From: Eledone cirrhosa
Taxonomy: Eukaryota
NCBI GenBank assembly: GCA_964016885.1
Contig: OZ024756.1
Span: 14,260,001-14,324,000, forward strand
Reading direction: 5' to 3'
Length of the DNA stretch: 64,000 nucleotides
Positions 790 to 62,924 of the stretch are shown one piece after another. The number at the start of each line of letters is the position of its first letter. Position 1 is the stretch's first letter. The translations under genes and the position numbers were made by a program. The notes beneath the pieces were generated by a model. That model saw nothing but the letters and a program-made list of their open reading frames with translations, was not told where the DNA came from and did no database searches.

Positions 790-2348
<1,559 letters not shown>

Positions 2349-2645: not shown

Positions 2646-3374
2646 ACATAGAACGAGAAACCAAGGTTGTTAATCCAATTTAATATTTAATCTCTACAAA
2701 TGTATTTGTTTTGCAAATTCCTAGATGGAAAATTGTGTGTTGAAATATATACTTTGGGAGGGTCATGTTGCCAATAAAAACTCACGCACCAGTTGATTTT
2801 CATTTCAATTTTATTACTAGTTAGGTAACTAACCAATTCCTTAGTGAGTTTATTAACCGGATTTTAGTGTCAAATTCCATTGCCAAAGCTTTTTCTGTCA
2901 CATATTCCGTTAACTTCTGAATAAAAGACCACAGAACGGCAGAATGGAGTAAATAAAACAAAACCAAAAATGAAGAGATACAGAGGAACATGAATAATCA
3001 TTGACAAGGTGACAGAATGTGTGACGAAAGAGCTTTCATGAGTAAATATGACAATTAAATAACGATCCGATGATTAAACTAAACTACGAATGGATTAATT
3101 GCCTAACAAATAATAAAACTGAAGAGAAACTCAATTGGGGTGTGTCTCATTATTGTTAGAAACACACATACACACACACGTGTGTGTGTGTGTGTGTGTG
3201 TGTGCATATATGTGTGTGTGTATATATATATATATATATTTATTTATTTATGTAATAAACAACATAAGACAATTATTTCATTTACCAAAGGTTTCACGAG
3301 ACAGACATAACTAAATAGCTCTGTAGTCTACATAGAGCACTCTCCTTTCCTTTACCTATCCTACGGAAACACTT

Positions 3375-5269: not shown

Positions 5270-5302
<33 letters not shown>

Positions 5303-5437
5303 AAATAATTAAGTCAAATATGTAAAATTTGGCTTCGTTTATTATGAATTATAGATATACGGCTATATATATTTCGGTGACAGCCATCGGTAAACAACGA
5401 ACATATACTCAAAATTTATATATGTATATATATATAT

Positions 5438-6229: not shown

Positions 6230-7570
6230 CAGGCGCAATTCAAGTACGTTATACAGGTGGAAAAAGCAAGTAGGTGAGAAGTACTTACATAACCACAGTA
6301 CCGTGATGCAGCTCGAAATGGAGGCTTGGGTTGAGGGTAGGGGGTAGGTTGGGATGGAGGGGGAGGGGATATTCTCTCGATGGCGTTTCTTTTGTAAATT
6401 ATCCATCTGGTTTCAACACTGGCTTAAGATATTTGTAAGTTGTAAAGCTTTTGTGCATGCAGTTCGGGCAGTGTTCAGAGACTTTGAGCAGTGTTGGGGC
6501 CCTTGACAAACAGAATTTCGTAGCTCTCTGAAAAACAAAGGTCGCAACACTTGTTTCCTCCCATGTATGAGTGCGCTTTCTGGAGTAATTTCCATTTGAG
6601 AGTGAAGTTCATCTTGAGGTCCCAGACATAGGAGGCGAGTGTTGTCTGATTGGATTTGTCCGGTCTTCTGAAAGAGTGGGTATGGGCATACCACCGGGTC
6701 TTAAAATTGTTGGAAGTCATTCCGTTATAAGTCTTTTTGTTGTTGTCACCAATGCCTGAGACGACATCACATTTATATACGATGTCATTCGCCAGGCATT
6801 TGTTTTCGAGTGGGCAAGCTTTCGTATTTTGGCAATTGCACAAAGCTCCCGTCCGGGGATTGGTTTCGGAGGGAGTAGGCTTATTTAATTTTGTAGTGTT
6901 GAGATTGGCTATATTCCTAGCTAGGTTAGGTGTAGTGGAGTAGGAGAGTCTTATCATATTCTTATTAAAGATAGTGTAGTACCTATGTTGTGTAGGGAAG
7001 TGTTTATACAGCAATTTGAAGAAAGTCCTAGCTATAGGTGTAGAAACCTCTCTGTTGAAGGGGAGTTGTACCAACTAATCTGCCTATGCCTATTTCTCCT
7101 AGGTAGTCTTGTGGGTGATTTCTAGATAAGTAATCATTTCTTTAAAGCCATTGCCGGCGAGGGCGTCGTTGTAGTAAGGGGTAGATGCGCTAAAGATATC
7201 TTCATTGGCTGAGAGACCGGAAATTCTGAGTGAGACGCTTTTAACTAAATTATCAGTGATGTTTTGGGGGTGTTTCGAACTAACATTTATGTATCTGAGG
7301 GACTGGTTAGGTTTGAGGTATGGGTAATAGAGGGAAGTATCTAAGTAAAGAGTGACATCTAAAAATTTGACCCAGGTCATATTAGATTCTATGGTTATTC
7401 TAAATCCTAGATTATGGAAGAACGAGCTTAAGTTTCTCCGAAACCCATCAGTGGCTCTGGGGTTAACCTTGTGCAAAGCGAAAAGGCCATCATCTCGGTA
7501 TAATCCTCCAGTTAGGCCCGTGAAGAGGTTCTTCAGGTGGTATAAGATGTACAGGCCCACGAGAGGTCGC
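6230..7570 (-). pseudogene. Decayed, 5'-truncated Penelope-like element (RT C-terminal part + GIY-YIG endonuclease)
   Basis: ORF 7099-7560 has GLYRDDG, KFLDVTL and YINVSSKHP (PLE RT). ORF 6475-7074 has CNC..CPL...C, IVY..YNGMT..FKTRW..H and CDLC..E (PLE GIY-YIG with Cys-rich linker). Frame is broken between the ORFs. Confidence 0.88.
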
Positions 7571-8739: not shown

Positions 8740-8940
8740 CAGCGAGATTCGGATTTCGGCTGTGGTCAAAACAAAGCGAAACGCAATATCCGAGTTATGG
8801 TGGCAAGCGCTCCATGGACCAAATAAAGACCAGAGCAATAAACATAGGTTATAAAGGCCAAACAAACTGAGATGGCGGTCAAGAAGCCATCAACCACCTA
8901 AGCCAAAAAGACGAGGCAAGCCAAATAGGTCAAACAAAAT

Positions 8941-9199: not shown

Positions 9200-9545
9200 A
9201 TGAGAGTAAATGAAGTGGAATCAATTTTTTCAAGGGCCGAGTATAAAGATAAAGACAGAGGCAAGGAGGTCAAATGGCTACTGCTATAACTAGCAGCAGT
9301 CAGAACGACCAAATTTTTCTCAACATAGAGGAGATTAGTAATAATAGGATATGTGTTCCTACACGCACAGGCGCTAAGGGACACAGGTATTGTCCAACTG
9401 TATGCCAATGTGGTTCAATGGCAGGTTAATAAATTAACGAGCCAGAACATAATTTATTAACCTGCCATTGAACCACATTGGCATACGGTTGGACAATACA
9501 TGTGTCCCTTAGCGCCTGTGCGTGTAGGAACACATATCCTATTAT
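9200..9545. mobile_element. Asymmetric palindrome family P
   Basis: ~95-bp near-perfect arms 9341-9435 and 9451-9545 ending in (TA)n; unpaired tail to the left. Confidence 0.7.
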
Positions 9546-10291: not shown

Positions 10292-10383
10292 ATATAGAAA
10301 AGCTTCTGAAGCTTTTCTATATTAAAACATTTATACTCTGCTATGTATTGAGTACCTGACTTACTCTGGTTACCCCCGGAATA

Positions 10384-10432: not shown

Positions 10433-10747
10433 AGGGAGTGTAACTTGGAGTTACTGTAGGTTCACCCGGGTGAGCACTCGATGTTTAGGTTCACTTCAGT
10501 GTCGAGGTGTAGAGCTAGACAGAGTGTATTACAGTTAAATAAGATAACAAGGATGATTGGTTGCTCTTTCATTACGTTTATTGGATTCTTCCATTAACAT
10601 TACAAGGGGTCTGACGAGCCGCGGATTACAGAGTCAGGTCAGATCGATACAGATCGAACCTTGAGCTTGTCAGTGGCGAAACGCGCGTCACCAACCAATA
10701 AACGTAATGAAGGAGTAACCAATCGTCCTTGTTATCTTATTTAACTA
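10430..10747. mobile_element. Asymmetric palindrome family E with hammerhead
   Basis: Arms 10533-10584 and 10696-10747, (TA)n flanks. Confidence 0.75.
10608..10692 (+). ncRNA. Type I hammerhead ribozyme motif (family E)
   Basis: GGU-CUGACGA-GCCGC..GUGGC-GAA-ACGCGCGU-C/ACC followed by AAUAAA: canonical core, palindromic stem III, GUC site. Confidence 0.8.
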
Positions 10748-14119: not shown

Positions 14120-14309
14120 AAAATGTTTAACCCTGACGGCAGAGCTCAAGCCGTTTCGACGGCTATTTCTGGACTGAAATAGCCGTCGAATAGGCTTGAG
14201 CTCTGCCGTCGGGGTCATACTTTTTCCTATTTCCCACTCTACTATCCTAAGTATTGAGTACTCTGGTGAGTTATGGTCCATTTGGTTCCTTACCACAATT
14301 CCTTTGTTA
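14116..14309. mobile_element. Family A element (diverged subfamily, opposite orientation)
   Basis: Inverted arms around ctggactgaaatag; (TA)n flanks. Confidence 0.75.
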
Positions 14310-15292: not shown

Positions 15293-15499
15293 ACGAAGGA
15301 GGTGTGGTAAGGAACCAGATGGACCATAACACACCAGAGTACTCAATACTGGGGTAGTAGAGTAGGTAATTGGAAAATGTTAGACCCCGACGGCAGAGAT
15401 CAGCATTTTACCAGTTTTACCAATAAGACTTGGGATAGTAGTGCGTAAATATATAGTCTGGAATTTGCTGTCGAATTTAGAGTTCAGCCGTCAGGTCCC

Positions 15500-18763: not shown

Positions 18764-19199
18764 ATAATTGTTTCTACTTTAGGCACAAGGCCAGCAATTC
18801 ACCAGTGTATTACTGGTACTTTATTTTATCGACCCCGTAAGGATGAAAGGCAAAGTCAACCTCGGCGGGATTTGAACTCAGATCATAAAGGGATGTAACT
18901 ATGCTGGAAGAAGCTGAGCGTGGTTCAGACACATCTTTATATTAATAGCAGTGGTTGAGCGAAGTTTAACATCTATATATTAATAATGGTGCTTGAGCAA
19001 GGTTTAGCCATCTATATATTAATAATTGTTTCTATTTTTGGCACAAGGCCAGCAATTATCCCAGTGTATTACTGGTACTTTATTTTATCGACCCCGTAAG
19101 GATAAAAGGCAAAGTAAACCTCGGCGGGATTTGGACTCAGATCATAAAGGGACGTAACTCTATGCTACAAAGCATGGTGTCCGACTCTCTACCGATACT
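18764..19199 (-). mobile_element. Two SINE copies (18764-18908, 19023-19199)
   Basis: Reverse-complement match to consensus; the second lies within the first units of the 39-bp array. Confidence 0.85.
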
Positions 19200-21937
19200 A
19201 TATTAATAATGGTGCTTGAGCAAGGTTTAGCCATCTATATATTAATAATGGTGCTTGAGCAAGGTTTAGTCATCTATATATTAATAATGGTGCTTGAACA
19301 AGGTTTAGCCATCTATATATTAATAATGGTGCTTGAGCAAGGTTTAGCCATCTATATATTAATAATGGTGCTTGAGCAAGGTTTAGCCATCTATATATTA
19401 ATAATGGTGCTTGAGCAAGGTTTAGTCATCTATATATTAATAATGGTGCTTGAACAAGGTTTAGCCATCTATATATTAATAATGGTGCTTGAGCAAGGTT
19501 TAGCCATCTATATATTAATAATGGTGCTTGAGCAAGGTTTAGTCATCTATATATTAATAATGGTGCTTGAGCAAGGTTTAGTCATCTATATATTAATAAT
19601 GGTGCTTGAGCAAGGTTTAGCCATCTATATATTAATAATGGTGCTTGAGCAAGGTTTAGCCATCTATATATTAATAATGGTGCTTGAGCAAGGTTTAGTC
19701 ATCTATATATTAATAATGGTGCTTGAGCAAGGTTTAGTCATCTATATATTAATAATGGTGCTTGAGCAAGGTTTAGCCATCTATATATTAATAATGGTGC
19801 TTGAGCAAGGTTTAGCCATCTATATATTAATAATGGTGCTTGAGCAAGGTTTAGCCATCTATATATTAATAATGGTGCTTGAGCAAGGTTTAGCCATCTA
19901 TATATTAATAATGGTGCTTGAGCAAGATTTAGTCATCTATATATTAATAATGGTGCTTGAGCAAGGTTTAGCCATCTATATATTAATAATGGTGCTTGAG
20001 CAAGATTTAGTCATCTATATATTAATAATGGTGTTTGAGCAAGGTTTAGCCATCTATATATTAATAATGGTGCTTGAGCAAGGTTTAGTCATCTATATAT
20101 TAATAATGGTGCTTGAGCAAGGTTTAGCCATCTATATATTAATAATGGTGCTTGAGCAAGGTTTAGCCATCTATATATTAATAATGGTGCTTGAGCAAGG
20201 TTTAGCCATCTATATATTAATAATGGTGCTTGAGCAAGATTTAGTCATCTATATATTAATAATGGTGCTTGAGCAAGGTTTAGCCATCTATATATTAATA
20301 ATGGTGCTTGAGCAAGGTTTAGCCATCTATATATTAATAATGGTGTTTGAGCAAGGTTTAGCCATCTATATATTAATAATGGTGCTTGAGCAAGGTTTAG
20401 CCAACTATATATTAATAATGGTGCTTGAGCAAGGTTTAGTCATCTATATATTAATAATGGTGCTTGAGCAAGGTTTAGCCATCTATATATTAATAATGGT
20501 GCTTGAGCAAGGTTTAGCCAACTATATATTAATAATGGTGCTTGAGCAAGGTTTAGTCATCTATATATTAATAATGGTGCTTGAGCAAGGTTTAGTCATC
20601 TATATATTAATAATGGTGCTTGAGCAAGGTTTAGCCATCTATATATTAATAATGGTGCTTGAGCAAGGTTTAGCCATCTATATATTAATAATGGTGTTTG
20701 AGCAAGGTTTAGCCATCTATATATTAATAATGGTGCTTGAGCAAGGTTTAGTCATCTATATATTAATAATGGTGCTTGAGCAAGGTTTAGCCATCTATAT
20801 ATTAATAATGGTGCCTGAGCAAGGTTTAGCCAACTATATATTAATAATGGTGCTTGAGCAAGGTTTAGTCATCTATATATTAATAATGGTGCTTGAGCAA
20901 GGTTTAGCCATCTATATATTAATAATGGTGCTTGAGCAAGGTTTAGTCATCTATATATTAATAATGGTGCTTGAGCAAGGTTTAGTCATCTATATATTAA
21001 TAATGGTGCTTGAGCAAGGTTTAGCCATCTATATATTAATAATGGTGCTTGAGCAAGGTTTAGCCATCTATATATTAATAATGGTGCTTGAGCAAGGTTT
21101 AGCCAACTATATATTAATAATGGTGCTTGAGCAAGGTTTAGCCATCTATATATTAATAATGGTGCTTGAGCAAGGTTTAGCCAACTATATATTAATAATG
21201 GTGCTTGAGCAAGGTTTAGCCATCTATATATTAATAATGGTGCTTGAGCAAGGTTTAGCCATCTATATATTAATAATGGTGCTTGAGCAAGGTTTAGCCA
21301 TCTATATATTAATAATGGTGCTTGAGCAAGGTTTAGTCATCTATATATTAATAATGGTGCTTGAGCAAGGTTTAGTCATCTATATATTAATAATGGTGCT
21401 TGAGCAAGGTTTAGCCATCTATATATTAATAATGGTGCTTGAGCAAGGTTTAGCCATCTATATATTAATAATGGTGCCTGAGCAAGGTTTAGCCAACTAT
21501 ATATTAATAATGGTGCTTGAGCAAGGTTTAGTCATCTATATATTAATAATGGTGCTTGAGCAAGGTTTAGCCATCTATATATTAATAATGGTGCTTGAGC
21601 AAGGTTTAGTCATCTATATATTAATAATGGTGCTTGAGCAAGGTTTAGCCATCTATATATTAATAATGGTGCTTGAGCAAGGTTTAGCCAACTATATATT
21701 AATAATGGTGCTTGAGCAAGGTTTAGTCATCTATATATTAATAATGGTGCTTGAGCAAGGTTTAGTCATCTATATATTAATAATGGTGCTTGAGCAAGGT
21801 TTAGCCATCTATATATTAATAATGGTGCCTGAGCAAGGTTTAGCCAACTATATATTAATAATGGTGCTTGAGCAAGGTTTAGTCATCTATATATTAATAA
21901 TGGTGCTTGAGCAAGGTTTAGTCATCTATATATTAAA
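19200..21937. repeat. 39-bp minisatellite, about 70 units
   Basis: Unit ATATTAATAATGGTGCTTGAGCAAGGTTTAGYCATCTAT; diverged units at 18935-19025. Confidence 0.97.
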
Positions 21938-23092
21938 AATGGAATTTGAGCGACGTTTATCTCCATTTGTATTTTTTACTTTCATTCTGGTAGAAACACG
22001 TTTAAAAAACAACAGATAGTGGCATTATTTCTTCATATTTCTAACAAATTGATCAATGTTTCAAATTCCCCATCAAATCACTTCATTAGAAAATCGATGA
22101 AATAAATAATTCATTTCACACACACGCACACATATTCACGGAGTATATACACTCACATATCTACAAATATACACATGTATATACTATACACAACACACTC
22201 GGAAATATAGTTTTTAAGAATACTCTGTTAATTATATATATATATATATATATATAATGGTATAATAAATGTATGGAACTAACACATCGTTACTAATAAT
22301 TTTATGACAGTTTTTTTTAATACAGTCAATCATTGGACGATATAAAACGAGCGTCCTTCAACAAACCCACACCATCTTAGACATATACAATTTGAAACAC
22401 AGAGGAAAATATTTAACTTAATTTAAAAAAAAAAGATAATATGATAGGAACTTATATAATATTTGTGAAATGAAAAGAAAAAGACAAAACATAGAAACGA
22501 CTTAATTAAATTGTTTCTAAAAACTCGACACATCTTAAAGCTGGGTGTTTATCTATTTCGCCTTCTTGTTCCCTTACCAGGTAAATACAGCTTCTCAGAC
22601 GATAAATATGAAGCGAAGAGTGCGCACCCTACATCCGGGGTATTTGGTGGTAAGGGCCGACGTTTTTAGTGTTCTACCACTGTTGTTCCTGTTCTTGTTG
22701 CAACCAGCACCAACTAGTTTTCTTACAATGGCTGTTATTTACTGTTACTCAATTTATATTCAATTTGTCTTGTTTTTCGTTGCTTATTTTTACAATTAAA
22801 ATTTGAAAAAAAAAAGAGTAAATTAACTGAATTTATACATTATCATGTGATCAGATTCGGATTTATTTATTTATTTTGTGGTTTGTTTTAGCACTTTTTT
22901 GTACGTTGTAGCATTTCTTTCACCAGTGAGAAGCCAATGGCCCGAAAAATTGTGACGTTAAAAATATATGATCACTAGCGCGCTCACATACATATATACA
23001 TACACACACATATATAAATATGTGTATATATATGTATACACACACATATGCATATATATACACACACATATGCATATATATATACACACATA

Positions 23093-23498: not shown

Positions 23499-23867
23499 AA
23501 CGAAGGAAATGTGGTAAGGAACCAGGTGGACCATAACGCACCAAAGTACTCAATACTTAGAGTAGTAGAGTGGGTAATAGGAACCAGTAAGACCCCGACG
23601 GCTGAGCTCAAGCCGTTTCGACGGCTTGGCAGTATCGGTAGAGGGTCGGACGCCATGCTTTCCAGCAGAGTTACGTCCCTTTACGATCTGAGTTCAAATC
23701 CCGCCGAGGTTGACTTTGCCTTTCATCCTTACGGGGTCGATAAAATAAAGTACCAGTAATGCACTGGGTAATTTGCTGGCCTTGTGCCAAATGTAGAAAC
23801 AATTATTAGTCCAGAATTAGCCGTCGAAACGGCTTGAGCTCAGCCGTCGGGGTCTTACTGGTTCCTA
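23499..23867. mobile_element. Family A element with a SINE at the inversion point
   Basis: Left arm ends ..gacggct, SINE 23627-23807, right arm starts agtccag at 23808. Confidence 0.8.
23627..23807 (+). mobile_element. SINE at centre of family A palindrome
   Basis: Consensus match, lacks the first ~10 nt, no visible TSD. Confidence 0.85.
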
Positions 23868-25142: not shown

Positions 25143-25300
25143 AAGTCCGGGTTCAATCGGAGTTAACCACAGTAAGTAAGGTACTCAAAACATTAGTAGA
25201 GTGTATACAACAAATTTAATAATGGCTTCTACAGGACTAGAACTGTTTCATTCGAATGAAACAGTTCTAGTCCTCTAGAGCCATTTTTATATTAAATTTG

Positions 25301-25358: not shown

Positions 25359-25586
25359 GGTAGTAGAGTGGGTAATAGGAACGAGTAGAACCCGACGGCT
25401 GAGCTCAAGCCATTTCGACGGCTAATTCTGGACTAAAAAAAAAAAAAAAAAGTCCAGAATTAGCCGTCGAAACTGCTTGAGCTCAGCCGTCGGGTTCTAC
25501 TCGTTCCTATTACCCACTCTACTACCCTAAGTATTGAGTACTTTGGTGCGTTATCGTCCATCTGGTTCCTTATCACATTTCCTTCG

Positions 25587-25895: not shown

Positions 25896-26308
25896 TATGT
25901 ATATATATATGCATGTACAAGTATACTTAATATTATTTAGCCAATCAGCATCAACTATTTATTAATTCCTATTACTGCACAGATCACATTTGCCTTTTTA
26001 CGTCACACATCACATGGTATTCTTATTGTTGCATGGTTGAATAATCAGTGTTGCATTATGGCGCCCATTTGTATCTTCCACGCTATCACCATCATCATCA
26101 TTATCATCATCACCAACACACTCACCAGTATATCGGAGTACATGGGATGTGAATGAAGAGAAATGCATCAGGTATGTGTCAGTTCTGCACATTGCAGAAG
26201 GGTGCGCAGTATATAATCTACCACATGCAATTTTCTGGATATAGGAAACGGGACGACCGAATCATCGAACATAGAAGGGGCAGGAAAAAAATTTGAAATC
26301 ATTATCAG

Positions 26309-27336
26309 GGATTGACAGTATCGGTAGAGGGTCGGACGCCATGCTTTGACGCATAGAGTTACGGCCCTTGCCATTCTGAGTTCAAATTCCGGCGAGGTTA
26401 ACTTTGCCTTTCGTCCTTACGGAGGTCGATAAAATAAAGTACCAGTAATGCACTGGGATAATTGCTGGCCTTGTGCCAAAAGTAGAAACAATTATCAATA
26501 ACTAAGGGACAAGTGTATGTCCCATTGCCCGGAGGAGGAGCAAAAAGAAAAAGTATTATGAGAATAATTGTTTCTACTTTTGGCACAAGGCCAGAAATTA
26601 TCCCAGTGTATTACTGGTACTTTATTTTATCGACCCCGTAAGGATGAAAGGCAAAGTTAACCTCGACGGGATTTGAACTCAGAATGGCAAGGGATGTAAC
26701 ACTATGCGTCAAAACATGGCGTCCGACCCTCTACCGATACGGCCAATCCATAATAATGGTTTTTGATGTAGGCACAAGGCCAACAATTTGGGAATGGAGG
26801 GGAAAGTCGATTAAATCGACCCAAGTGTGTTACTGGTACTAAATTTTATCGAGCCCGGTAAGGATGAAAGGCAAAGTTAACCTCGGTGGGATTCGAACTC
26901 AGAATGTAAAGTACCGTAACTCTATGCTGCAAAGCATATTGCCCGACGCTCTACCGATTACTGAGATCATAAAGTGAGGTAACTCTATGCTTCAAAGCAT
27001 GGCGCCCGACCCTCTACCGTCAGTATAATAATGTAAAAGTAAAAAGACATCTATCGATCGTCATACTCACACCCCATTCGCTTAGCGAGTTGGAACTCGT
27101 CAGATCGGACCAAGGAAACAATGTTTCCATTGGTCTTTCCTTTGCTGGCATTGTGGATTGGCAGTATCAGTAGAGGGTCGGACGCCATGCTTTCCAGCAT
27201 AGTTACGTCCCTTTACGATCTGAGTTCAAATCCCGCCGAGGTTGACTTTGCCTTTCATCCTTACGGGGTCGATAAAATAAAGTACCAGTAATGTACTGGG
27301 TAATTGCTGGCCTTGTGCTAAAAATAGAAACAATTA
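26309..27336. mobile_element. Cluster of four SINE copies (26309-26493 +, 26566-26749 -, 26752-27020 - longer variant, 27153-27336 +)
   Basis: Consensus match; the third copy has an extra internal segment and a duplicated head. Confidence 0.85.
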
Positions 27337-27434
27337 TCTAGTTGGAATTCCTCGTTATAAAAAACAATTAAAAAAGCTAGACACTGCAGACTCACGATAT
27401 GACAGAGACAAGTTCTAAGTATTTTTGTCGACAC

Positions 27435-30302: not shown

Positions 30303-30364
30303 AACATATAAAATAAAATAATTAAGTCAAATATTTAAGATCTGGCTTCGTTTATTAAAGATGT

Positions 30365-30419
30365 ACTGCTATATATATTTCGGTGGCAGCCATCATTGGC
30401 TGTGACCTCTTCAGGCAGT
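30365..30419 (-). ncRNA. Inverted copy of family B hammerhead
   Basis: Near-exact reverse complement of 30621-30675. Confidence 0.8.
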
Positions 30420-30620
30420 CCGAATTGGTGTGGGAAAGACAGCTACACATGTTGTTGAAGTGTGTTTTACTCCGTCAATACTCCGATATGTCCAGCTCCT
30501 GGTTGGGTTGTTATTTCTCAGAGAAATAACAACCCAACCAGGAGCTGGACATATCGGAGTATTGACGGAGTAAAACACACTTCAACAACATGTGTACCTG
30601 TCTCTACCACACCAATTCGG

Positions 30621-30675
30621 ACTGCCTGAAGAGGTCACAGCCAATGATGGCTGTCACCGAAATATATATAGCAGT
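30621..30675 (+). ncRNA. Type I hammerhead ribozyme motif (family B)
   Basis: ACUGC-CUGAAGA-GGU-CACAGCCA..UGGCUGUC-ACC-GAAAUAUAUAUA/GCAGU with a perfect 5-bp stem I. Confidence 0.82.
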
Positions 30676-30848
30676 ACATCTTTAATAAACGAAGCCACAT
30701 TTTACCTATTTGACTTAATTATTTTACATTACTCCGGAGTAACCAAACCGATCTGCGTACTTCGTTGAGTGCTCCAATCTGCATATTGAGGTATCGGTAA
30801 ACAACCAACATATACTCAAAATTTATACATACATATATATATATATTT

Positions 30849-35276: not shown

Positions 35277-38200
35277 CGGACCAATCATAAGCCATAATAC
35301 GTGGACCAATCATAAGCCAGAGCCCCCCCCCCCGCATCACCACCATTATTATAAGCCAGAGCCCCCACCCCCACCCCACGCATCACCATTATTATTATTA
35401 CGCGGACCAAATCATAAGCCAGAGGCCTATACTATCGCTTGCCCGGTTGCCTTCGATATATGATGGATGGATGGATGGACGGACGGACTGCGGAATCCTG
35501 GAGAGCGGAAGGGAGAGAAAAATCTGGACGCCCAGAGCGAAAATGCCAAAGTTAAAGTCAAATTCACCTCGTGGACGAGAATGCGAGCACTCCTCTTTGT
35601 TTCGTCCGCGGATGGCTAACATAACCCTATCTCCTCCCGCCCCCCACCACCCCCACCCTCCAAACGCAACCCAAAACTTCAGAGTTGGTACCATAAATGT
35701 AGGCACCCTAAAGGGTCGCGCTAACGAGGTTGTAGAAATGCTTGAACGTAAGGAGGTCGATGTTTGTTGTATTCAAGAGACCAGGTGGAGGGGTGGGTCT
35801 GCTAGATTCATTGAGGGTAAAAAACGATGTTATAAGCTTTTCTGGGTGGGAAACGACGATGGGCTGGGTGGAGTAGGAATCATGGTAGCAGAAAAGTGGG
35901 CAGATAAGATAATAGACGTAAATAGAGTGAACGACAGAATAATTAAAATAAGACTTGTCCTCAATAGAACTACGGTGACAGTAATATCTGCGTACGCACC
36001 CCAATCCGGACTGCCCGGCACTATAAAAGACAGATTCTATGAGACACTGTTGCTAACTACCTCCCAAATATCTGACAGTGACTATATAATTATTGCAGGC
36101 GACCTAAATGGTCATGTTGGACAACATTGTGACGGCTACGACGAAATCCATGGAGGCTATGGGTTTGGTACTAGAAATGAGGAAGGCTCCAGAATTCTGG
36201 AATACTGTGATGCAAATAACCTAACTATCTGTAACACTAACTTCAAAAAACGTGACAATCACCTGATTACCTATAGATCCGGGGAACACACAAGCCAGGT
36301 AGATTATATCCTTACCAGAAGACGTGACAGAGTGTCTGTTGTAAACACTAAATCCCTCCCCCATGAAGAATGCACCTCCCAACATAGACTGATAATTAGC
36401 GACCTCACAGTCAGGACGAGACGTACCCGACAGCAGAAGAGGACTATCCTCAGGAGGAAAATATGGAAACTAAAGGACCCCACAGCCAGAAATAAATTTC
36501 AAAGCATATTACTTGATGCTTTCGACAGTAAGGAAGAGCATCTAGAATCGGACAATATAGAGGGACAGTGGAAATTTCTGAAAGCAAACCTGCTGTTGGC
36601 GACAGACGAAGTCTGTGGCTGGAGCAGGCCTGTAGGCAGGAGGAGAGTAACATGGTGGTGGAACAATAGGGTGGAGGGGTCAATTAAGGCCAAAAAGCAG
36701 GCTTGGAAAGTATGGCGGGATGGGGGAAGTAGAGTAGACTATCAAGTGGCCAGGAGGGAAGCTAGGAGAGAAGTGTACTTAGCAAGAAGGGAAGCTGAGG
36801 AAAGAAAGTTCAAGCATGTTCTACAACGCGATGACCAAAAACGTGAGGTGTTCAGGATTGCCAGGCAATGCGTCAAGGAAAACCGTGATATTGTCGGGGA
36901 GAAGTGTGTACTTAACGATGATGGCATACTTGCCATCACCGACACTGATAAGAAGGTAGCTTGGAAGTGTCACTATGAAAGGCTACTAAATGAGGAGAAT
37001 AAATGGGAGAAAGACAGTCTCCCCCATATCGACCCGATAGAGGGACCAGCAGTGTTAGTCGAGGGGAGTATAATAAGTAAGGCAATCAAGGATATGAAGA
37101 CTGGTAAGGCGGCTGGGCCTTCGGAAATAGTTGCTGAGATGCTGAAGGCATCTGGCACGGTGGGACACACCATGGTCACCCGCATAGTTAACCAAGTCGT
37201 ACAGAATGGGGTTGTTCCGAAGGACTGGCATAGCAGCATCATCGTTAACTGTTACAAGGGTAAAGGAGACGCCCTAGATAGGAGTAACTATAGAGGCATT
37301 AAATTAATCGACCAGGTCATGAAGGTCACGGAAAAAGTAATAGCGCAACTAATCAGAGAGAGAATTGATCTAGATGAAATGCAGTTCGGGTTTGTGTCAG
37401 GCAAAAGCACCATAGACGCTCTTTTCATAGTACGACAACTACAGGAGAAGTACCTAGCTAAAGGTAAACCCCTCTACTTAGCTTTTGTCGACCTGGAGAA
37501 AGCCTTCGACAGAGTCCCCCGCTCCATTATCTGGTGGGCTCTTAGAAAACTAGGCGTTGACGAATGGCTTGTGAGGGCTATACAAGCCATGTATAAAGAA
37601 ACAGTCAGCAAGGTTAGAATTAACAACGAATATAGTGAAGAGTTTAGCGTAAAAGTTGGCGTCCATCAGGGCTCTGTTCTCAGCCCCCTACTATTTATTA
37701 TTGCCCTTCAGGCTATAACAGAGGAGTTCAAGACAGGCTGCCCATGGGAACTCCTATACGCAGACGACCTGACACTCATAGCGGAATCAATGGCCGAGCT
37801 AGAGAAGAAATTCCAAACATGGAAGCACGGCCTAGAGTCAAAAGGACTTAAAATTAACCTGGCTAAGACCAAAGTTCTAGTTTGTAGGAAAGAAAACAAG
37901 GCGGCGGTCCCTTCTGGGAAATGGTCGTGCTCGGTATGTAGGAAAGGCGTAGGTAGAAACTCCATCTTATGTCCTAAATGCAAAGTATGGGTGCATAAAA
38001 GATGTAGTGGGATCACAGGTAAGCTAACTAAGAACATAGACTTTACATGTGGCCGGTGTTCTGGTGCAATAAGTAGCAGCAAGTGCCCACAAAATACTAG
38101 CTCTTTCAATTGCGCAGAGGGTTCTATAGAAATAGTGGACAGCTTCCGTTACCTGGGCGATAAAATCAGCAGTGGGGGAGGGTGCTCTGAAAGTACTGTA

Positions 38201-39080
38201 GCTAGAGTCAGAACTGGTTGGAAAAAGTTCAGAGAGCTTATACCACTATTAGCTGCTAAAGGGTTCTCCCTAAAAATGAAAGGCAGGTTGTACGATGCCT
38301 GCATACGAACAGCAATGTTGCATGGTAGTGAGACCTGGGCATTGTGTGCAGAGGATATACGCAGACTAGAGAGGAACGAAGCTTGCATGCTCCGCTGGAT
38401 GTGTAACAGTAATATACGTGAACGGCAAAGCATAAACGAACTAAGGAAAAAATTAGAGATAAGAGGGATCAGATGTTGTTTACTCGAGAGAAGGCTGCGT
38501 TGGTATGGACACGTGATGCGCATGAAAGTCGATAGCTGTATTACAAAGTGCAGGGCAATAAAGATAGACGGTAGCCACGGAATAGGCAGACCTAGAAAAA
38601 CATGGGATGAGCTGATAAACTCCGACCTCACACACTTACACCTCTCCAAGACAATGTCACTGGACCGTGACCTTTGGCGGTACTCAGTAACAGAGAAGAC
38701 CCGCCTTGCCAGTAGGCATCTCTAACAAACTACACCCCGTCCCGCCACCACCCCCACCCCATCCACACCACCCCGTTCTATGTAAAGTTATGTTGGTGCC
38801 GCGCCATCCAGGCCGAAACAAATGAGATCGTGTAGGTGTCACGACAAAAAAACACACAGTCCACGCTGTAATGTGGCCGTGTAGGCAACACGGTAAAAAC
38901 CTCCCAGACCCACACTGTAAATGTGGTTGGTGTTAGGAAGGGCATCCAACTGTAGAAAACCTGCCAGACAGTCCTATGCGAGCAAGACAATCACTCTTGC
39001 CTCAAGTGGGACTACCCCCGTCCAAACCCATGCAAGCGTGGAACACGGACGTTAAACGTTGATGATGATGATGATGATGA
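35277..39080 (+). mobile_element. Full-length RTE-clade non-LTR retrotransposon inserted in TA/CA microsatellite
   Basis: 5' UTR with repeated ccaatcataagccagag units, a single long ORF, and a 3' UTR ending ...ggacgttaaacgtt(GAT)n at ~39060-39080. TSD cannot be resolved inside the microsatellite. Confidence 0.93.
35471..38725 (+). CDS. RTE LINE polyprotein: APE endonuclease + reverse transcriptase + PHD-like Zn finger
   Basis: APE motifs GTINVGTL, CIQETRW, SAYAPQ, AGDLNGHVG, QVDYIL, SQHRL. RT motifs NYRGIKL, QFGF, AFVDLEKAFDRV, GVHQGSVLSPLLF, LYADD, FRYLG. RTE C-terminus GSETW, RLRWYGHV, GRPRKTW. No stops. The track start at 35447 is TTG; first ATG is 35471, alternative 35543. Confidence 0.95.
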   Translation: MDGRTDCGILESGRERKIWTPRAKMPKLKSNSPRGRECEHSSLFRPRMANITLSPPAPHHPHPPNATQNFRVGTINVGTLKGRANEVVEMLERKEVDVCCIQETRWRGGSARFIEGKKRCYKLFWVGNDDGLGGVGIMVAEKWADKIIDVNRVNDRIIKIRLVLNRTTVTVISAYAPQSGLPGTIKDRFYETLLLTTSQISDSDYIIIAGDLNGHVGQHCDGYDEIHGGYGFGTRNEEGSRILEYCDANNLTICNTNFKKRDNHLITYRSGEHTSQVDYILTRRRDRVSVVNTKSLPHEECTSQHRLIISDLTVRTRRTRQQKRTILRRKIWKLKDPTARNKFQSILLDAFDSKEEHLESDNIEGQWKFLKANLLLATDEVCGWSRPVGRRRVTWWWNNRVEGSIKAKKQAWKVWRDGGSRVDYQVARREARREVYLARREAEERKFKHVLQRDDQKREVFRIARQCVKENRDIVGEKCVLNDDGILAITDTDKKVAWKCHYERLLNEENKWEKDSLPHIDPIEGPAVLVEGSIISKAIKDMKTGKAAGPSEIVAEMLKASGTVGHTMVTRIVNQVVQNGVVPKDWHSSIIVNCYKGKGDALDRSNYRGIKLIDQVMKVTEKVIAQLIRERIDLDEMQFGFVSGKSTIDALFIVRQLQEKYLAKGKPLYLAFVDLEKAFDRVPRSIIWWALRKLGVDEWLVRAIQAMYKETVSKVRINNEYSEEFSVKVGVHQGSVLSPLLFIIALQAITEEFKTGCPWELLYADDLTLIAESMAELEKKFQTWKHGLESKGLKINLAKTKVLVCRKENKAAVPSGKWSCSVCRKGVGRNSILCPKCKVWVHKRCSGITGKLTKNIDFTCGRCSGAISSSKCPQNTSSFNCAEGSIEIVDSFRYLGDKISSGGGCSESTVARVRTGWKKFRELIPLLAAKGFSLKMKGRLYDACIRTAMLHGSETWALCAEDIRRLERNEACMLRWMCNSNIRERQSINELRKKLEIRGIRCCLLERRLRWYGHVMRMKVDSCITKCRAIKIDGSHGIGRPRKTWDELINSDLTHLHLSKTMSLDRDLWRYSVTEKTRLASRHL

Positions 39081-41143: not shown

Positions 41144-41917
41144 GAAAACCACCCTATCTGGTGGTTTTTCTGCTAGCATTTATAATAGTACGTAAACATA
41201 TACATTCACACATAAGTATATGTGCGTCTGCATGGAAATACACATACACACATATATATACGTGCGATCTGCCCATACAAACATGTGTATAAATACATAC
41301 GCACATCTGCCTATACACGTACGTATACACAGACATACATAAGTTCACACACAGGCACGCACGCTTACACTTAAGTGTACACATAGACGTAATCGTAAAG
41401 ATATATATATACACACACAGACATAAATACAAACGACGATAGACACATGCAAAAATCTAACTGGGAAGTAGTTAGTGGAACAGATATAAATAAAAAATAA
41501 AAAAAAAAAAAAAAAAAATTAAATATAAATATATATATATATAACGTATTAAAAAAATAATGAATAAAACAATGAAACAGTTCCTTATATTAAACAAAAA
41601 AAGTTCATTATTTAACGATCGTTTCTAGGACATATATGTGTTAGAATTGGCATGCATATTCAACAGATCTATGTACAAAATTATACAAAATTATACAAAC
41701 TATCAAATTTAGGACACTACTGTAAACTCTTGGTAGATTTATCTACATATATATATATAACCAAAGATTAATATAGTTCATTGATTACTCAATGAATATA
41801 GTTTTACAATAGATTAAAAGCACTCTGCAAGAAGTTTTCTGGAGTTATTAATATTATACGAAATATTAATAAATGAAGACATTCACATAATCAAAATATA
41901 TGTTTTATTATATATAT

Positions 41918-42104
41918 GGCGGTGGATTGGCAGTATCGGTAGAGGGTCGGACGCCATGCTTTCCAGCATAGTTACGTCCCTTTACGATCTGAGTTCAAAT
42001 CCCGCCGAGGTTGACTTTGCCTTTCATCCTTACGGGGTCGATAAAATAAAGTACCAGTAATGCACTGGTTAATTGCTGGCCTTGTGCCTAAAGTAGAAAC
42101 AATT
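41918..42104 (+). mobile_element. tRNA-derived SINE, full-length reference copy
   Basis: Box A TGGCAGTATCGG, box B GTTCAAATCC, central gactttgcctttcatccttacggggtcgataaa..agtaccag (resembles the MetaSINE domain from memory), tail agaaacaatt(at)n. Confidence 0.88.
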
Positions 42105-42275
42105 ATATATATTTCGGAGGTACTGTGCTGTGTTTTCAGTACGTCCTCGTCAGATAAAATACATGAATTGATGTATGACATACCTCAACGGTCTTGATGA
42201 TTCAATTCCAGTACTGCCAATACTGGAATTGAATCATCAAGACCGTTGAGGTATGTCATACATCAATTCATGTAA

Positions 42276-42336: not shown

Positions 42337-43366
42337 ACATATATTTTGATTATGTGAATGTCTTCATTTATTAATATTTTGAATAATATATATATATAAA
42401 TATAATTTCAGCGAGATCGTATTTCGGCGGGGAACAAAAACAAAGCGAAACGCAATCCTCGAGATATGCGGCTAGCGCTCAATGGACTAAAAGAAGACTA
42501 GAGCAATTAACATACAAATATATATCCATACACACATACGTATATATACACCAACACACACACATATACGCATATATACACCAACACACACACACATACA
42601 TACAAACACACACACACATATATATATGTGTGTGTTTGTATATATATACTTATATATATACACATACATACATACACATACCCACATAAGCACATACATA
42701 TATATATAGAGAGAGAAAGAGAGGGAGAGAGACACACAGACACACACACACATATATATATATATATGTATGTATGTATAGACACGTAAAAGTACATAAA
42801 CCCGCACACACATAAACATGCATACATACAATAAAAATAACCGTAATTATAAATATGTACACATATAGACAAAAAAGTATACACGCATATACATATATAC
42901 ATGCATACACATACATTTATATATACATACATACGCACACACACACATATATATATATACATACATACACACGCGTACATGCACATAAATATACATATAT
43001 ACATGCGTATACACATATATATATACACCCGCACGTACACAATATGAGTGAGAGGACATAACACACGTACATACACACACACACACAAATATATATATAT
43101 AAATGGAAAAGAATGAAACGAAATTTCATTTCTCACTCTTAGTACGGCTGATACTTAAATATAAGTATGTATACGTACATACATATATGTGTACAGACGT
43201 ACAGTAATATATATACATACATGCACATATATATATATATATATGTACGTATGGGTTTACCGAACATTTATTATAATGTTCGGCTTGTTTGTAAACAAAC
43301 CGCCCGAATTACGCCGTACAGTGCTCGGAAACCAGCGTCGCCTTTTTGTTCAACACTGACACAAGA

Positions 43367-43409
43367 ACGATGTACTAGTTTCAAGCTTATTAGCTATCGT
43401 CAGCATCGT
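43367..43409 (-). ncRNA. Hammerhead ribozyme motif (family M)
   Basis: ACGAUG-CUGACGA-U-AGCU AAUA AGCU-U-GAAACUAGUA/CAUCGU with a perfect 6-bp stem I and palindromic ACUAGU stem III. Confidence 0.75.
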
Positions 43410-43646
43410 ATACCTTCCTGTCAGATGATTGAACGTTTGAAAGTATATACTTTCCTTATGCATATTAACGGCTGAGCAGCCTAATTTGCATATCGAGTGA
43501 GTTAGTCGGCCGGGCGTACCGAAAACGATAAATGGAAAAGAATGAAACGAAATTTCATTTCTCACTCTTGGTACGGCTACTCAGCCGTTAATATGTATAA
43601 GGAAAGTATATACTTTCAGACGTTCAATCACCTGGCAGGAAGGTAT

Positions 43647-43689
43647 ACGGTGCTGACGATAGCTAATAAGCTTGAAACTAGTACAGCGT
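43647..43689 (+). ncRNA. Inverted copy of family M hammerhead
   Basis: acggtg ctgacga t agct aata agct t gaaa ctag ta cagcgt. Confidence 0.7.
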
Positions 43690-43829
43690 TCCTTTGTCAG
43701 TGTTGAACAAAAGGGCAACGATGGTTGCTAAACACTGTACGGCTTAATTCGGGATGTTTGTTTACAAACAAACCGAGCATTATAATAAATGTTCGGTAAA
43801 TCCATACGTACATATATATATATGTGCAA

Positions 43830-43897
43830 GTATGTATATATATACATACTACTGTACGTCTGTATACATATATGTATGTACGTATACATACTTACAT

Positions 43898-43934
<37 letters not shown>

Positions 43935-46144
43935 TACATACATACTACTGTACGTATGTATACATATATGTATGTACGTATACATACTTACATTTATATA
44001 TATATATATATATACATATACATACACACATATACATACATACATACTACTGCACGTCTGTATACAATATGTATGTACGTATACATACTTACATTTATAT
44101 ATATATATATATATACATACACACATATACATACATACATACTACTGTACGTCTGTATACAATATGTATGTACGTATACATACTTACATTTATATATATA
44201 TATATATATATATACATACATACACACATATACATACATACATACATACATACTACTGTACGTCTGTATACATATATGTATGTACGTATACATACTTACA
44301 TTTATATATATATATATATATATACATACACACATATACATACATACATACTACTGTACGTCTGTATACAATATGTATGTACGTATACATACTTACATTT
44401 ATATATATATATATATATATACATACACACATATACATACATATACATACTACTGTACGTCTGTATACATATATGTATGTACGTATACATACTTACATTT
44501 ATATATATATATACATACACACACACATATACATACATACATACATACATACTACTGTACGTCTGTATACATATATGTATGTACGTATACATACTTACAT
44601 TTATATATATATATATATACATATACATACACACATATACATACATACATACTACTGCACGTCTGTATACAATATGTATGTACGTATACATACTTACATT
44701 TATATATATATATATATACATACATACACACATATACATACATACATACATACATACTACTGTACGTCTGTATACATATATGTATGTACGTATACATACT
44801 TACATTTATATATATATATATACATACACACATATACATACATACATACTACTGTACGTCTGTATACAATATGTATGTACGTATACATACTTACATTTAT
44901 ATATATATATATATATATACATACACACATATACATACATATACATACTACTGTACGTCTGTATACATATATGTATGTACGTATACATACTTACATTTAT
45001 ATATATATATATATATATACATACATACACACATATACATACATACATACATACATACATACATAGTACTGTACGTCTGTATACATATATGTATGTACGT
45101 ATACATACTTACATTTATATATATATACATATACATACATACACACATATACATACATACATACATACATACATACATAGTACTGTACGTCTGTATACAT
45201 ATATGTATGTACGTATACATACTTACATTTATATATATATATATACATACACACATATACATACATATACATACTACTGTACGTCTGTATACATATATGT
45301 ATGTACGTATACATACTTACATTTATATATATATATCTATATACATACACACATACATATACATACATACATACATACATACTACTGTACGTCTGTATAC
45401 ATATATGTATGTACGTATACATACTTACATTTATATATATACATATACATACACACATATACATACATACATACTACTGCACGTCTGTATACAATATGTA
45501 TGTACGTATACATACTTACATTTATATATATATATATATACATACATACACACATATACATACATACATACATACATACATACTACTGTACGTCTGTATA
45601 CATATATGTATGTACGTATACATACTTACATTTATATATATATATATATACATACACACATATACATACATACATACTACTGTACGTCTGTATACATATA
45701 TGTATGTACGTATACATACTTACATTTATATATATATATATATATACATACACACATATACATACATATACATACTACTGTACGTCTGTATACATATATG
45801 TATGTACGTATACATACTTACATTTATATATATATATATATATATACATATACATACACACATATACATACATACATACTACTGCACGTCTGTATACAAT
45901 ATGTATGTACGTATACATACTTACATTTATATATATATATATATACATATACATACACACATATACATACATACATACTACTGCACGTCTGTATACAATA
46001 TGTATGTACGTATACATACTTACATTTATATATATATATATATATATACATACATACACACATATACATACATACATACATACATACATACATAGTACTG
46101 TACGTCTGTATACATATATGTATGTACGTATACATACTTACATT

Positions 46145-46176
<32 letters not shown>

Positions 46177-47917
46177 TACATACATACATACTACTGTACG
46201 TCTGTATACAATATGTATGTACGTATACATACTTACATTTATATATATATATATATATATATACATACATACACACATATACATACATACATACATACAT
46301 ACTACTGTACGTCTGTATACAATATGTATGTACGTATACATACTTACATTTATATATATATATATACATACACACATATACATACATACATACTACTGCA
46401 CGTCTGTATACAATATGTATGTACGTATACATACTTACATTTATATATATATATATATATATACATACATACACACATATACATACATACATACATACTA
46501 CTGTACGTCTGTATACATATATGTATGTACGTATACATACTTACATTTATATATATATATATACATACACACATATACATACATACATACTACTGTACGT
46601 CTGTATACAATATGTATGTACGTATACATACTTACATTTATATATATATATATACATACACACATATACATACATACATACTACTGTACGTCTGTATACA
46701 TATATGTATGTACGTATACATACTTACATTTATATATATATATATACATACACACATATACATACATACATACTACTGTACGTCTGTATACAATATGTAT
46801 GTACGTATACATACTTACATTTATATATATATATATATATATACATACACACATATACATACATATACATACTACTGTACGTCTGTATACATATATGTAT
46901 GTACGTATACATACTTACATTTATATATATATATATACATACACACATATACATACATACATACTACTGCACGTCTGTATACAATATGTATGTACGTATA
47001 CATACTTACATTTATATATATATATATATATATATACATACATACACACATATACATACATACATACATACATACTACTGTACGTCTGTATACATATATG
47101 TATGTACGTATACATACTTACATTTATATATATATATATACATACACACATATACATACATACATACTACTGCACGTCTGTATACAATATGTATGTACGT
47201 ATACATACTTACATTTATATATATATATATATATATACATACATACACACATATACATACATATACATACTACTGTACGTCTGTATACATATATGTATGT
47301 ACGTATACATACTTACATTTATATATATATATATATATACATATACATACACACATATACATACATACATACTACTGCACGTCTGTATACAATATGTATG
47401 TACGTATACATACTTACATTTATATATATATATATATATATATACATACATACACACATATACATACATACATACATACATACTACTGTACGTCTGTATA
47501 CATATATGTATGTACGTATACATACTTACATTTATATATATATATATACATACACACATATACATACATACATACTACTGCACGTCTGTATACAATATGT
47601 ATGTACGTATACATACTTACATTTATATATATACATATACATACACACATATACATACATACATACTACTGCACGTCTGTATACAATATGTATGTACGTA
47701 TACATACTTACATTTATATATATATATATATATATATACATACATACACACATATACATACATACATACATACATACTACTGTACGTCTGTATACATATA
47801 TGTATGTACGTATACATACTTACATTTATATATATATATATACATACACACATATACATACATACATACTACTGCACGTCTGTATACAATATGTATGTAC
47901 GTATACATACTTACATT

Positions 47918-47940: not shown

Positions 47941-47954
<14 letters not shown>

Positions 47955-48792: not shown

Positions 48793-49015
48793 ATTTATTA
48801 AAATAACAGATTAAAGTTTAAGCAGAGAATCGCTGCTTTCACCCTTAACGGATCTTCTGAAACAGAAGATCCCGTTAAGAGTGAAAGCAGCGATTCTTTG
48901 CTTAAACTTTAATCTGTTATTTTAATAAATATTTGCTCTACAGTTCTTATATATTTGATATATATTTATCCTTATCGAGCCCTCTTTGGATTTTAGTCTT
49001 CAAATTTATTATTAT

Positions 49016-49452: not shown

Positions 49453-49700
49453 ATAATAAAGAAGAAATTAAAAGATGGTTAAAAGAGTTCCATATATTTT
49501 ATTATGCGCATTTCGAATACAAAATCATCCTTGTCCCAGGATGATTTTGTATTCGAAATGCGCATAATAAAATATATGGAACTCTTTTAACCATCTTTTA
49601 ATTTCTTCTTTATTAAATATACTCCAGTTCTACGAACTGTTGAGTGCTATTTATCTGATATATGCATAGTTTTATTGTTCTACAATATTACTCACCTTCT
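49453..49700. mobile_element. Asymmetric palindrome family D
   Basis: ~78-bp arms around 49534; hammerhead 3' half GAAAUGCGCAUA followed by AAUAAA. Confidence 0.75.
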
Positions 49701-61153: not shown

Positions 61154-61638
61154 TACAATATTAAATAAATGGAAAACTATATTTATAAAACCATATTTAT
61201 TTCATTATATATATTTCGGGGATATCATATTAACAATATGCTATGCCTTCATCAGACAAAATACAATATAAACAGTTTTATAGATAAATAGATTCGACAT
61301 ACCGTAATAAACACCGACTTCATTTGAAGAGGTTTACGCTAGCAGTGAACATTTTCACTGCTAGCGTAAACCTCTTCAAATGAAGTCGGTGTTTATTACG
61401 GTATGTCGAATCTATTTATCTATAAAACTGTTTATATTGTATTTTGTCTGATGAAGGCATAGCATATTGTTAATATGATATCCCCGAAATATATATAATG
61501 AAATAAATATGGTTTTATAAATATAGTTTTCCATTTATTTAATATTGTAAATATACTCCAAATATTTGTCGAGTGCTTTTATATCAGTTATAAATATTTA
61601 CTAGTTGTAACCCAACAATTTTAAATATAACTTTACAT
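61153..61638. mobile_element. Family C palindrome, near-perfect ~195-bp arms
   Basis: Centre agcagtgaa catt ttcactgct at ~61351; (TA)n flanks. Confidence 0.85.
61440..61505 (+). ncRNA. Hammerhead motif (family C, second palindrome)
   Basis: Matches 48668-48733; inverted copy at 61199-61263. Confidence 0.72.
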
Positions 61639-62042: not shown

Positions 62043-62390
62043 AATCAAGAAAGAAGAGTGACATGGTTTGCTATACAATAAGGGCTTTATTCACCTTGCT
62101 GACAATTGTTTCTCTGAACTGGTAGGTCTAGAGATCGCTACCCGCCTGTTTTTGCGTCAATCGAAGCCATTATTGTATAGCAAACCATGTCACTCTTCTT
62201 TCTTGATTTATTATTACTCCAAGTGTAAACTACATAGAAATCACCGCGTACTCGCAGCGTAGTCGCAGCATCACTATGGAAACGTCTTGTTGAGTCAAAC
62301 TTAGCCAAGCGTTGGTACTATCCACTACTCGGAGTACCCTAACTGGACTTCATCTAAGTGGACTACCTATAATAATAATTTGTTATCCCG
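62043..62390. mobile_element. Family L asymmetric inverted element
   Basis: 36-bp arms 62043-62080 and 62171-62209 plus a long tail. Confidence 0.7.
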
Positions 62391-62676: not shown

Positions 62677-62924
62677 AAGAACACAAGAGCGTCTACAACA
62701 TCAAAAGATTTTTATTGGCTAACAATGTTTCTTCCTTACGTGTAACCGTAAGATTCGTCAGAGCTATAAAAGGGGTTTGATTGGTGTTAAATCTTTTGAT
62801 GTTGTAGACGCTCTTGTGTTCTTTTTCATATATACGGCTCTGCTCCAAAGCATAGAGCTAATTATTATGCTGCCAATACCTTAATGGGACACGGGTATAT
62901 AATACCTAACTCCTATTAACCTAA

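Follow-up and report, generated by a model that had tools for sequence, protein, structure and literature searches.

The palindromic insertions that Penelope-like retroelements (PLEs) of the Hydra clade have left in Eledone cirrhosa end at two positions, each just ahead of one of two copies of a covarying bulged hairpin in the element's 5' leader. The two ends of one insertion are strictly paired, one lying at hairpin 1 and its partner at hairpin 2 (the 1+2 rule), and the paired arms share variants. We infer that a single RNA is probably bound at its two hairpins by two protein copies, which prime reverse transcription on each nicked strand of the target.

The hairpin motif and its sites in the window

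The window, i.e. the whole stretch of 64,000 nucleotides that was analysed, comes from a host genome of 3.0 Gb; TA microsatellites are abundant in it and it contains many short palindromic insertions. The focal one belongs to family B. Its inverted arms span 30314-30726 with 95.9% inverted identity and a perfect central palindrome, its tail-less end corresponds to 30726, 4 nt ahead of the stem, and its features were as follows.

30314..30519, minus strand: tail-less inverted arm, with an outer end that maps 4-5 nt 5' of hairpin 1
30521..30726, plus strand: direct arm (5' leader, or pseudo-LTR, of a Hydra-clade PLE)
30731..30772 (stem 30731-30770), plus strand: hairpin 1, with ACTC, a 7-bp upper stem and loop, a TT bulge and GAGT followed by a conserved GC; scripted stem test
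30727..30824, plus strand: one-sided tail of 98 nt, unpaired, running into the microsatellite
30621..30675, plus strand: predicted minimal hammerhead, with core CTGAAGA at 30626-30632, GAAA at 30659-30662 and a palindromic stem III
30365-30419, minus strand: predicted mirror copy of the hammerhead
5298..5422, no strand assigned: second family B insertion, with the hairpin-1 end on the left and, on the right, no more of the tail than its final ~36 nt; these parts do not overlap

The hammerheads were called from their layout, which matches that given in PMC4209133 and in File S2 of PMC8557442. The focal tail ends 3-5 nt short of the hairpin 2 position known from read-through copies of family B; an ACTC near 30814-30817 was ruled out as hairpin 2 of this family. 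The two focal arms (30314-30345 versus 30695-30726) carry differing subfamily variants over the last ~25 nt, where seven other family B pairs agree; two templates or a later conversion are possible causes.

When the window sites were compared side by side, the motif proved to be a 4-bp stem (NCTC/GAGN') with a 2-nt 3' bulge and a variable, covarying upper stem-loop. The bulge bases are TT, TC, TA or CA, and GAGN' is usually followed by RC. A preceding sequence-only reading had listed 13 such hairpins at the arm ends of about 11 families and had overlooked the bulge, the upper stem and the second hairpin copy. Its coordinates stood for 12 of the 13 sites, which passed a scripted stem test; the thirteenth, the family F site at 25181-25202 (minus), failed the strict test and was recovered by the covariance model described below. 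The sites outside family B were the following.

2187..2212 (stem 2212-2189), minus strand: family A hairpin 1; scripted stem test
near 5482-5516, 14230-14264, 15336-15369, 23543-23577, 25510-25544 and 10811-10845: further copies of family A hairpin 1
61555..61576 (stem 61555-61574), plus strand: family C hairpin 1; scripted stem test
48417-48447 (minus) and 51863-51893 (plus): further copies of family C hairpin 1
49621..49647 (stem 49621-49645), plus strand: family D hairpin 1; stem test, fold z -4.35
10474..10525 (stem 10525-10476), minus strand: family E hairpin 1, long loop; stem test
10335..10355 (stem 10335-10353), plus strand: family F hairpin 1; stem test
25178-25208, minus strand: second copy of family F hairpin 1; covariance model
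41820..41845 (stem 41845-41822), minus strand: family G hairpin 1, CA bulge; stem test
62216..62295, plus strand: family L hairpin 1, long insert in the loop; stem test
3318..3340 (stem 3318-3338), plus strand: family H hairpin 1, GCTC/GAGC; stem test and covariance model
62837..62858, plus strand: family I hairpin 1; stem test
48935..48982 (stem 48935-48980), plus strand: family J hairpin 1; stem test
9318..9334, minus strand: family P hairpin 1, TCTC/GAGA, 1-bp upper stem; stem test
8804..8842, minus strand: tail hairpin of an additional family missing from the earlier reading; covariance model
42472-42510, minus strand: second copy of the tail hairpin of the family at 8804..8842

Covariation of the outer pair, the feature first noticed, holds mainly in the host (8 A-T, 3 G-C and 1 T-A in the window), 31 of 36 non-host instances being G-C; the upper stem holds more of the informative covariation. 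The further claim that the families share no other similarity was wrong: hammerhead cores and clade-defining ORFs are common to them, and the tails of C and G cluster together.

The sense strand of the focal hairpin 1 folds with z -2.03 and its antisense strand with z +0.67; sense folds of seven other instances gave z from -4.35 to -0.69. The lowest-energy fold of family A hairpin 1 is another structure (z -0.72), and hairpin 2 of family B folds weakly (z -0.69). Loop length is free: hairpin 2 of the H-like family and of family Q has a loop insert of 55-60 nt (L193, L208, L212), and hairpins 1 of E and L are likewise extended. Variants seen in host loci include GTTC/GAAC (L240, L219) and a 1-nt bulge (L275, L051). 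Splice-site and coding roles for the motif were ruled out, as it lies 5' of the start codon and its stem lengths vary freely. An Rfam scan of the window gave 1121 matches, and in each of the 150 listed a microRNA model hit a repeat or palindrome with a score below threshold.

Which elements the palindromes belong to

The palindromes are the ends of Penelope-like retroelements, and sequence motifs tie five families to Hydra-clade ORFs. The family F palindromes correspond to the 5' leader ahead of a 714-aa ORF in which RWR, DKT and the linker CxCX5C, with no CCHH, were read by eye. This ORF is 40-44% identical to 1312 relatives, and its Pfam GIY-YIG match is weak (E 0.027). Families A and B run into ORFs with RWR and DKT, the H-like family and family Q into ORFs with RWK; family C runs into a similar N-terminus, of which only the start is visible. 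Intact frames are available for family A and the H-like family. Of the features that set the Hydra clade apart, RWR/RWK and DKT instead of DKG are present in F, A and B, RWK in H-like and Q, and the CxCX5C linker without CCHH in the family F protein. The layout agrees with the one that defines the clade, a single ORF with RT followed by a C-terminal GIY-YIG in an element of ~3 kb or less; the tandem unit of family A is ~3.5 kb. No ORF was linked to D, E, G, I, J, L or P, which were known here from their ends. The predicted hammerhead core layout was recognized in the window families B, C, H, I and F, and the core of family A is degenerate. One ORF remnant was found in the window.

6402..7563, minus strand: disrupted Hydra-clade ORF, 3' portion, sharing 79% identity with the protein of family F

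At G000:C1:91475110-91488767 (L299-L306) and in L285 there are head-to-tail arrays of family A units, ~3.54 kb apart, and 257-bp mini-tandems in which both hairpins are retained.

The motif is enriched at arm ends in the host genome

Tailed palindromes were collected with a motif-blind detector that used TA flanks and inverted arms as its sole criteria. The survey comprised the window and 128 genome stretches of 9.9 kb (1.27 Mb), 104 of them at round coordinates and 24 neighbouring the window. After removal of duplicates, 96 palindromes with tails of 25-260 nt were kept. The focal element, whose left flank departs from a pure (TA)n run, was for that reason missed. As TA flanks are demanded, the count speaks to the occurrence of insertions in (TA)n, not to a preference.

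The strict motif lay within 15 nt of the arm end in 44 of the 96 palindromes, against 0.44 ± 0.68 (maximum 3) in 300 dinucleotide shuffles, so that the association noticed in the sequence-only reading is well above chance. Outside the window, the figure was 32/77. Counted by tail cluster, the motif was present in 14/39 clusters, and in 7 of the 11 with at least two members. The distance from arm end to motif, first put at 2-7 nt, turned out to be broader: measured from the innermost end that the junction allows it is 1-12 nt (mode 7-8), and with TA microhomology counted it is -1 to 9 nt (mode 4-5). Among the palindromes without the motif were a family of 13 members, another of 4, decayed copies and singletons whose status as PLE ends is doubtful.

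The motif recurs and covaries in other organisms

An alignment of 47 related proteins led to 78 metagenome loci. After four ORF-internal matches had been removed by eye, 63 hammerhead copies were left at 54 of these loci, in 31 non-host families. A sequence-anchor search placed a first motif ~45-65 nt past the hammerhead in 23 of the 31 families and a second motif in 13; among the 8 families without it, several are truncated ahead of the site or show a variant in the 3' half. The two hairpins are 55-74 nt apart in 16/17 cases (one was mis-anchored), and 8/10 tails end 51-68 nt past copy 1. Among the 3' copies, five end 0-3 nt ahead of copy 1 and one ends 1 nt ahead of copy 2; in seven, divergence prevented mapping.

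As MAFFT left the stems of variable-length instances unaligned, covariation was counted by anchors. With no pairing imposed, upper pairs 1 to 3 were formed in 32/36, 23/34 and 18/24 non-host instances at a 2-nt bulge, where the first upper pair far exceeded its frequency at bulges of 0, 1, 3 or 4. Permutation gave p ≤ 3e-4 for each of the first three upper pairs in these 36 instances, which include related, non-independent families. Hairpin 2 by itself showed no significant covariation in its 13 instances. Stem mismatches to Watson-Crick pairing were G-U in five cases versus A-C in one, a small G-U excess. A model-fitted alignment was 96.5% paired, and none of 500 shuffles scored as high; this alignment leans to the structure and includes the training sequences, and three base-stem pairs are invariant.

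A covariance model was then trained on 8 non-host instances, and its matches in the window were counted at E up to 5. Of 19 matches, 15 belonged to the listed families, 2 to a new family, 1 lay beside a TA run and 1 in a LINE ORF; 18/19 were thus element tails or next to TA runs. Long-loop instances, the focal hairpin included, were missed by this model.

The motif is also legible by eye in the published consensi Hydra-2_Amil, Hydra-2_Ajap and Hydra-1_Ajap, the last with two copies at its 5' end (PMC8557442). In the same source, Hydra-1_Amil has the motif with a G-U pair, Hydra-1_Crog has a possible variant, and Hydra-1_Obim stops before the motif. The published consensi with the motif come from coral and sea cucumber. 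Taken together, host enrichment, the end maps given below, recurrence outside the host and covariation support the earlier view of a conserved structural cis signal linked to arm ends.

A second hairpin lies just past the tail end

From the hairpin pair in non-host loci, a hidden second hairpin was predicted just past each host tail. Host loci were searched for the tail end followed by any two G/C bases, the motif itself not being required. These motif-free searches then found the predicted hairpin 2 in families A, C and the focal family B. It is visible in the full-length loci of H-like and Q, so that intact elements of A, B, C, H-like and Q all have a second hairpin just past the tail end; in family C, 2/20 loci read through past that end. 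In A, B and C the outer pair is A-T in hairpin 1 and G-C in hairpin 2, and the upper stems differ. In family F hairpin 2 is degenerate, with its 3' half only. In the families read through to ORFs, hairpin 2 is located 25-90 nt ahead of the start codon.

The distance between the hairpins is 67 nt in H, 76 nt in Q, 78 nt in A, 91 nt in C and 99 nt in B, and tail lengths follow this spacing: as intact elements have hairpin 2 just past the tail end, the tail is as long as the distance between the hairpins. Tails of motif-bearing families are mostly 60-100 nt, and up to ~210 nt in L. Hairpin 2 is conserved and lies at the same offset as hairpin 1, yet tail-ended insertions never include it. Its action must therefore come no later than the copying step, and the RNA is the simplest place for it.

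Insertion ends obey a 1+2 rule

TA-joined 3' ends of loci from the motif-blind survey were placed on read-through references. Ends fell within -12..+3 of hairpin 1 or 2 in 60/61 cases for A, 25/25 for C, 6/6 for Q and 5/7 for H; family F gave two clusters, at -17..-3 and +58..+64. End positions were sharp to 1-3 nt. Among 38 insertions with two ends, one has an off-site end, and the other 37 have one end at each site (37/37), none being 1+1 or 2+2. Outside the window the pairing held in 27/27, where independent starts would give at most half. Furthermore, across all host loci the closest match of an arm was its own partner in 17/19 palindromes of family A and 13/14 of family C; the identity of paired arms could alternatively come from gene conversion.

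The inner (5') ends of 21/22 site-1 copies of family A lie at -60 to -75, and those of 3/4 in F at -69 to -72, in both ~30 nt past a TATA-like box in the references (e.g. window 2135-2348 and 5433-5631; L303, L036). These clustered ends likely represent run-off at the transcription start, and many of the short palindromes may thus contain the mRNA leader in full.

Families without the motif

The 13-member family was recognized by eye as Neptune-type from its CX4CxxC linker and CCHH. It obeys 1+2 pairing in 6/6 insertions without the motif; both ends precede ATATCG, and 22/33 ends are at these sites. A TATC/GATA analogue in this family was rejected, as a second subfamily breaks the pairing and ends elsewhere. 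Family N also lacks the motif, as had been recorded before. The motif is therefore not needed for a tail in all clades and is, so far, a Hydra-clade solution.

Loci L311, L317 and L319 (G000 C1) show that this Neptune-type PLE is abundant and has long Asn/Thr/His-rich inserts in its N-terminal half; the second subfamily has other tail ends. At 43096-43811 of the window, a family N end with a hammerhead and no motif is followed at 43860-47950 by its arm, amplified into a ~91-bp tandem array of ~4 kb. At 141-520 and 8993-9201 a TA-flanked family has a short arm with no motif after it. Other features of the window include an intact-looking 1144-aa LINE ORF at 35291-38725 (plus), with an endonuclease and an RT whose region carries an inserted PHD finger; a 39-bp tandem repeat (x70) at 19158-22019, readable as a 953-aa open frame; and a dispersed ~190-bp repeat in more than 12 copies (597-677, 11322-11510, 26296-27340, 41922-42112, 60027-60520), which often sits in the palindromic TA run of hammerhead stem III.

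How the hairpins may set both ends

For the signal, the sequence-only reading had proposed the positioning of second-arm priming, RNA 3' processing or nicking by the GIY-YIG endonuclease. Positioning of priming fits best, except that it is not specific to the second arm, as the second copy marks the tail end; RNA 3' processing and DNA nicking are the rivals. In the mechanism that we consider probable, the motif would act as RNA, as a pair of bulged stem-loops 55-100 nt apart between hammerhead and start codon. Each hairpin would be the likely binding site for one copy of the RT-endonuclease protein, and the bound copies would probably, by analogy, form a dimer. Each copy would prime just 5' of its own hairpin from one nicked strand of the (TA)n target. 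The cDNA from hairpin 2 would copy the tail and displace the cDNA from hairpin 1, and joining of the two at their 3' ends would give the head-to-head palindrome, with an unpaired tail equal to the hairpin spacing. As the hairpins are in the 5' leader, ordinary transcripts would yield abundant short palindromes; full-length copies would require a tandem read-through RNA. Several observations count against this mechanism: family F has two sharp end sites but half a hairpin 2, the Neptune-type family pairs 1+2 with no such motif, hairpin 2 taken alone gave no significant covariation, the folds of family A hairpin 1 and family B hairpin 2 are poor, the focal arms differ close to their end, and published tails are shorter than these.

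The same geometry would arise if the RNA were cleaved just 5' of each hairpin and copying proceeded from ordinary RNA 3' ends, at site 2 and then at site 1. Ends sharp to 1-3 nt would suit such cleavage, as would the RNA-seq 3' ends in Anolis, which map to the start sites (PMC11167929). However, the same source reports in vitro initiation by the Anolis protein at internal positions of RNA that is uncleaved, and the cut would take the conserved hairpin off the piece to be copied. Moreover, the end maps contained no end at the hammerhead cut region, 40-60 nt upstream, which also rules out hammerhead cleavage as the source of the ends. We regard RNA cleavage as unlikely.

Improbable too is a scheme in which site 2 alone primes, fold-back or template switching of the first cDNA follows, and the tail-less end arises where the GIY-YIG endonuclease recognises hairpin 1 in DNA and cuts on its 5' side. 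It would account for arms from one template, for the 1+2 rule and for perfect central palindromes such as that of the focal copy. Endonuclease resolution has been suggested (PMC8557442), and the Drosophila virilis endonuclease reportedly needs the tail to recognise its substrate (cited in PMC11167929). Against this scheme, hairpin 2, which has the same motif, is absent from the inserted DNA, and the focal antisense strand folds no better than shuffles. In 3/38 pairs, the tail-side part stops short of hairpin 1 and the parts do not overlap, the other 35/38 reaching or overlapping site 1; in 15/38, the inner ends differ by >10 nt. Neither feature is given by a simple fold-back.

Very unlikely, finally, is that the hairpins do other work (translation, packaging, hammerhead folding) while annealing of the (TA)n primer to adjacent AU-rich patches sets the ends: hairpin 2 is indeed close to the start codon, a modest 3-5 nt TA microhomology is found at 7/12 end sites against a background of 0.24, and F and the Neptune-type family are sharp-ended without a full second hairpin, but two end sites have no microhomology in the reference copy, the many other AT-rich patches in the leaders are never used, and the ~5-nt offset is constant at both sites over spacings of 55-99 nt and across phyla.

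Relation to known systems

In L1 twin priming, both target strands prime on one RNA, which produces an inversion; one start uses the poly(A), the other a match that occurs by chance inside the RNA, and the resulting parts are free of overlap. In the insertions described here each start is internal and at a fixed position, and overlap of the parts is usual. In LINE/R2 3' recognition RNAs and telomerase RNA, a structure bound by the RT positions the template. There it is a single RNA structure at or near the 3' end, whereas here it is doubled, in the 5' leader, and lies 3' of each start.

The Hydra clade consists of C-terminal EN+ PLEs (Craig et al. 2021, PMC8557442). The families described here have in common with it the RWK-type motif, DKT, CxCX5C without CCHH, the hammerhead and (TA)n targets, as well as an inverted truncated copy with a one-sided tail. 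The canonical PLE tail, a one-sided extension on an inverted 5'-truncated copy, is thus present, at a length that differs: the published tail is 30-40 bp and is put down to endonuclease resolution, with no tail hairpin in the part of PMC8557442 considered here, in contrast to the 60-100 nt that predominate here. In Adineta vaga, Penelope insertions likewise have an inverted pLTR, an optional tail and junction palindromes (Arkhipova et al. 2013, PMC3846280); they were explained by self-priming on an antisense template, and a tail hairpin was not found in the part of that report considered.

The closest parallel to the mechanism that we favour is Poseidon PAc of Anolis carolinensis, for which two internal RT starts bound the tail in vitro (Frangieh et al. 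2024, PMC11167929). Cutting and extension take place on each of the target strands, the template must reach beyond the start on its 3' side, as far as +172, and a dimer is predicted. The two PAc starts resemble the two fixed positions described here, which were mapped from insertion ends. In the PAc template, AUCUC at +125-129 can pair, by eye, with GAGAU at +159-163, or UCUC with GAGA at +136-139. This candidate stem lies 7-14 nt 3' of the start at +111-118 and has no equal copy at the other start in the template as published there; it is a lead. Tentatively, programmed double priming by a protein dimer on two hairpins may be a more general device, with NCUC/GAGN', perhaps also present 3' of a PAc start, as an ancestral RT-positioning motif of the sister group of telomerase that could be transplanted for two-ended DNA insertion; we hold this extension possible and somewhat doubtful.

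Architecture, hammerhead, clade and the two internal starts are already published. In the literature searched, which includes the parts considered of PMC4209133 and PMC2377424, no description of the hairpin was found. Two bulged hairpins per element, their constant offset from the insertion ends and the strict 1+2 pairing are, within that literature, apparently new.

The PLE tail and the head-to-head insertions had no mechanism, and the 2024 in vitro study left open the signal that sets the starts. The hairpin pair likely tells the element's enzyme where copying starts, which would explain the one-sided tail. A doubled covarying motif at a fixed offset from the ends offers exact mutations to test and makes tail length predictable from sequence; it also provides a diagnostic for annotating Hydra-clade ends across animals. 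Finally, it bears on how an RNA template is positioned in the closest relatives of telomerase.
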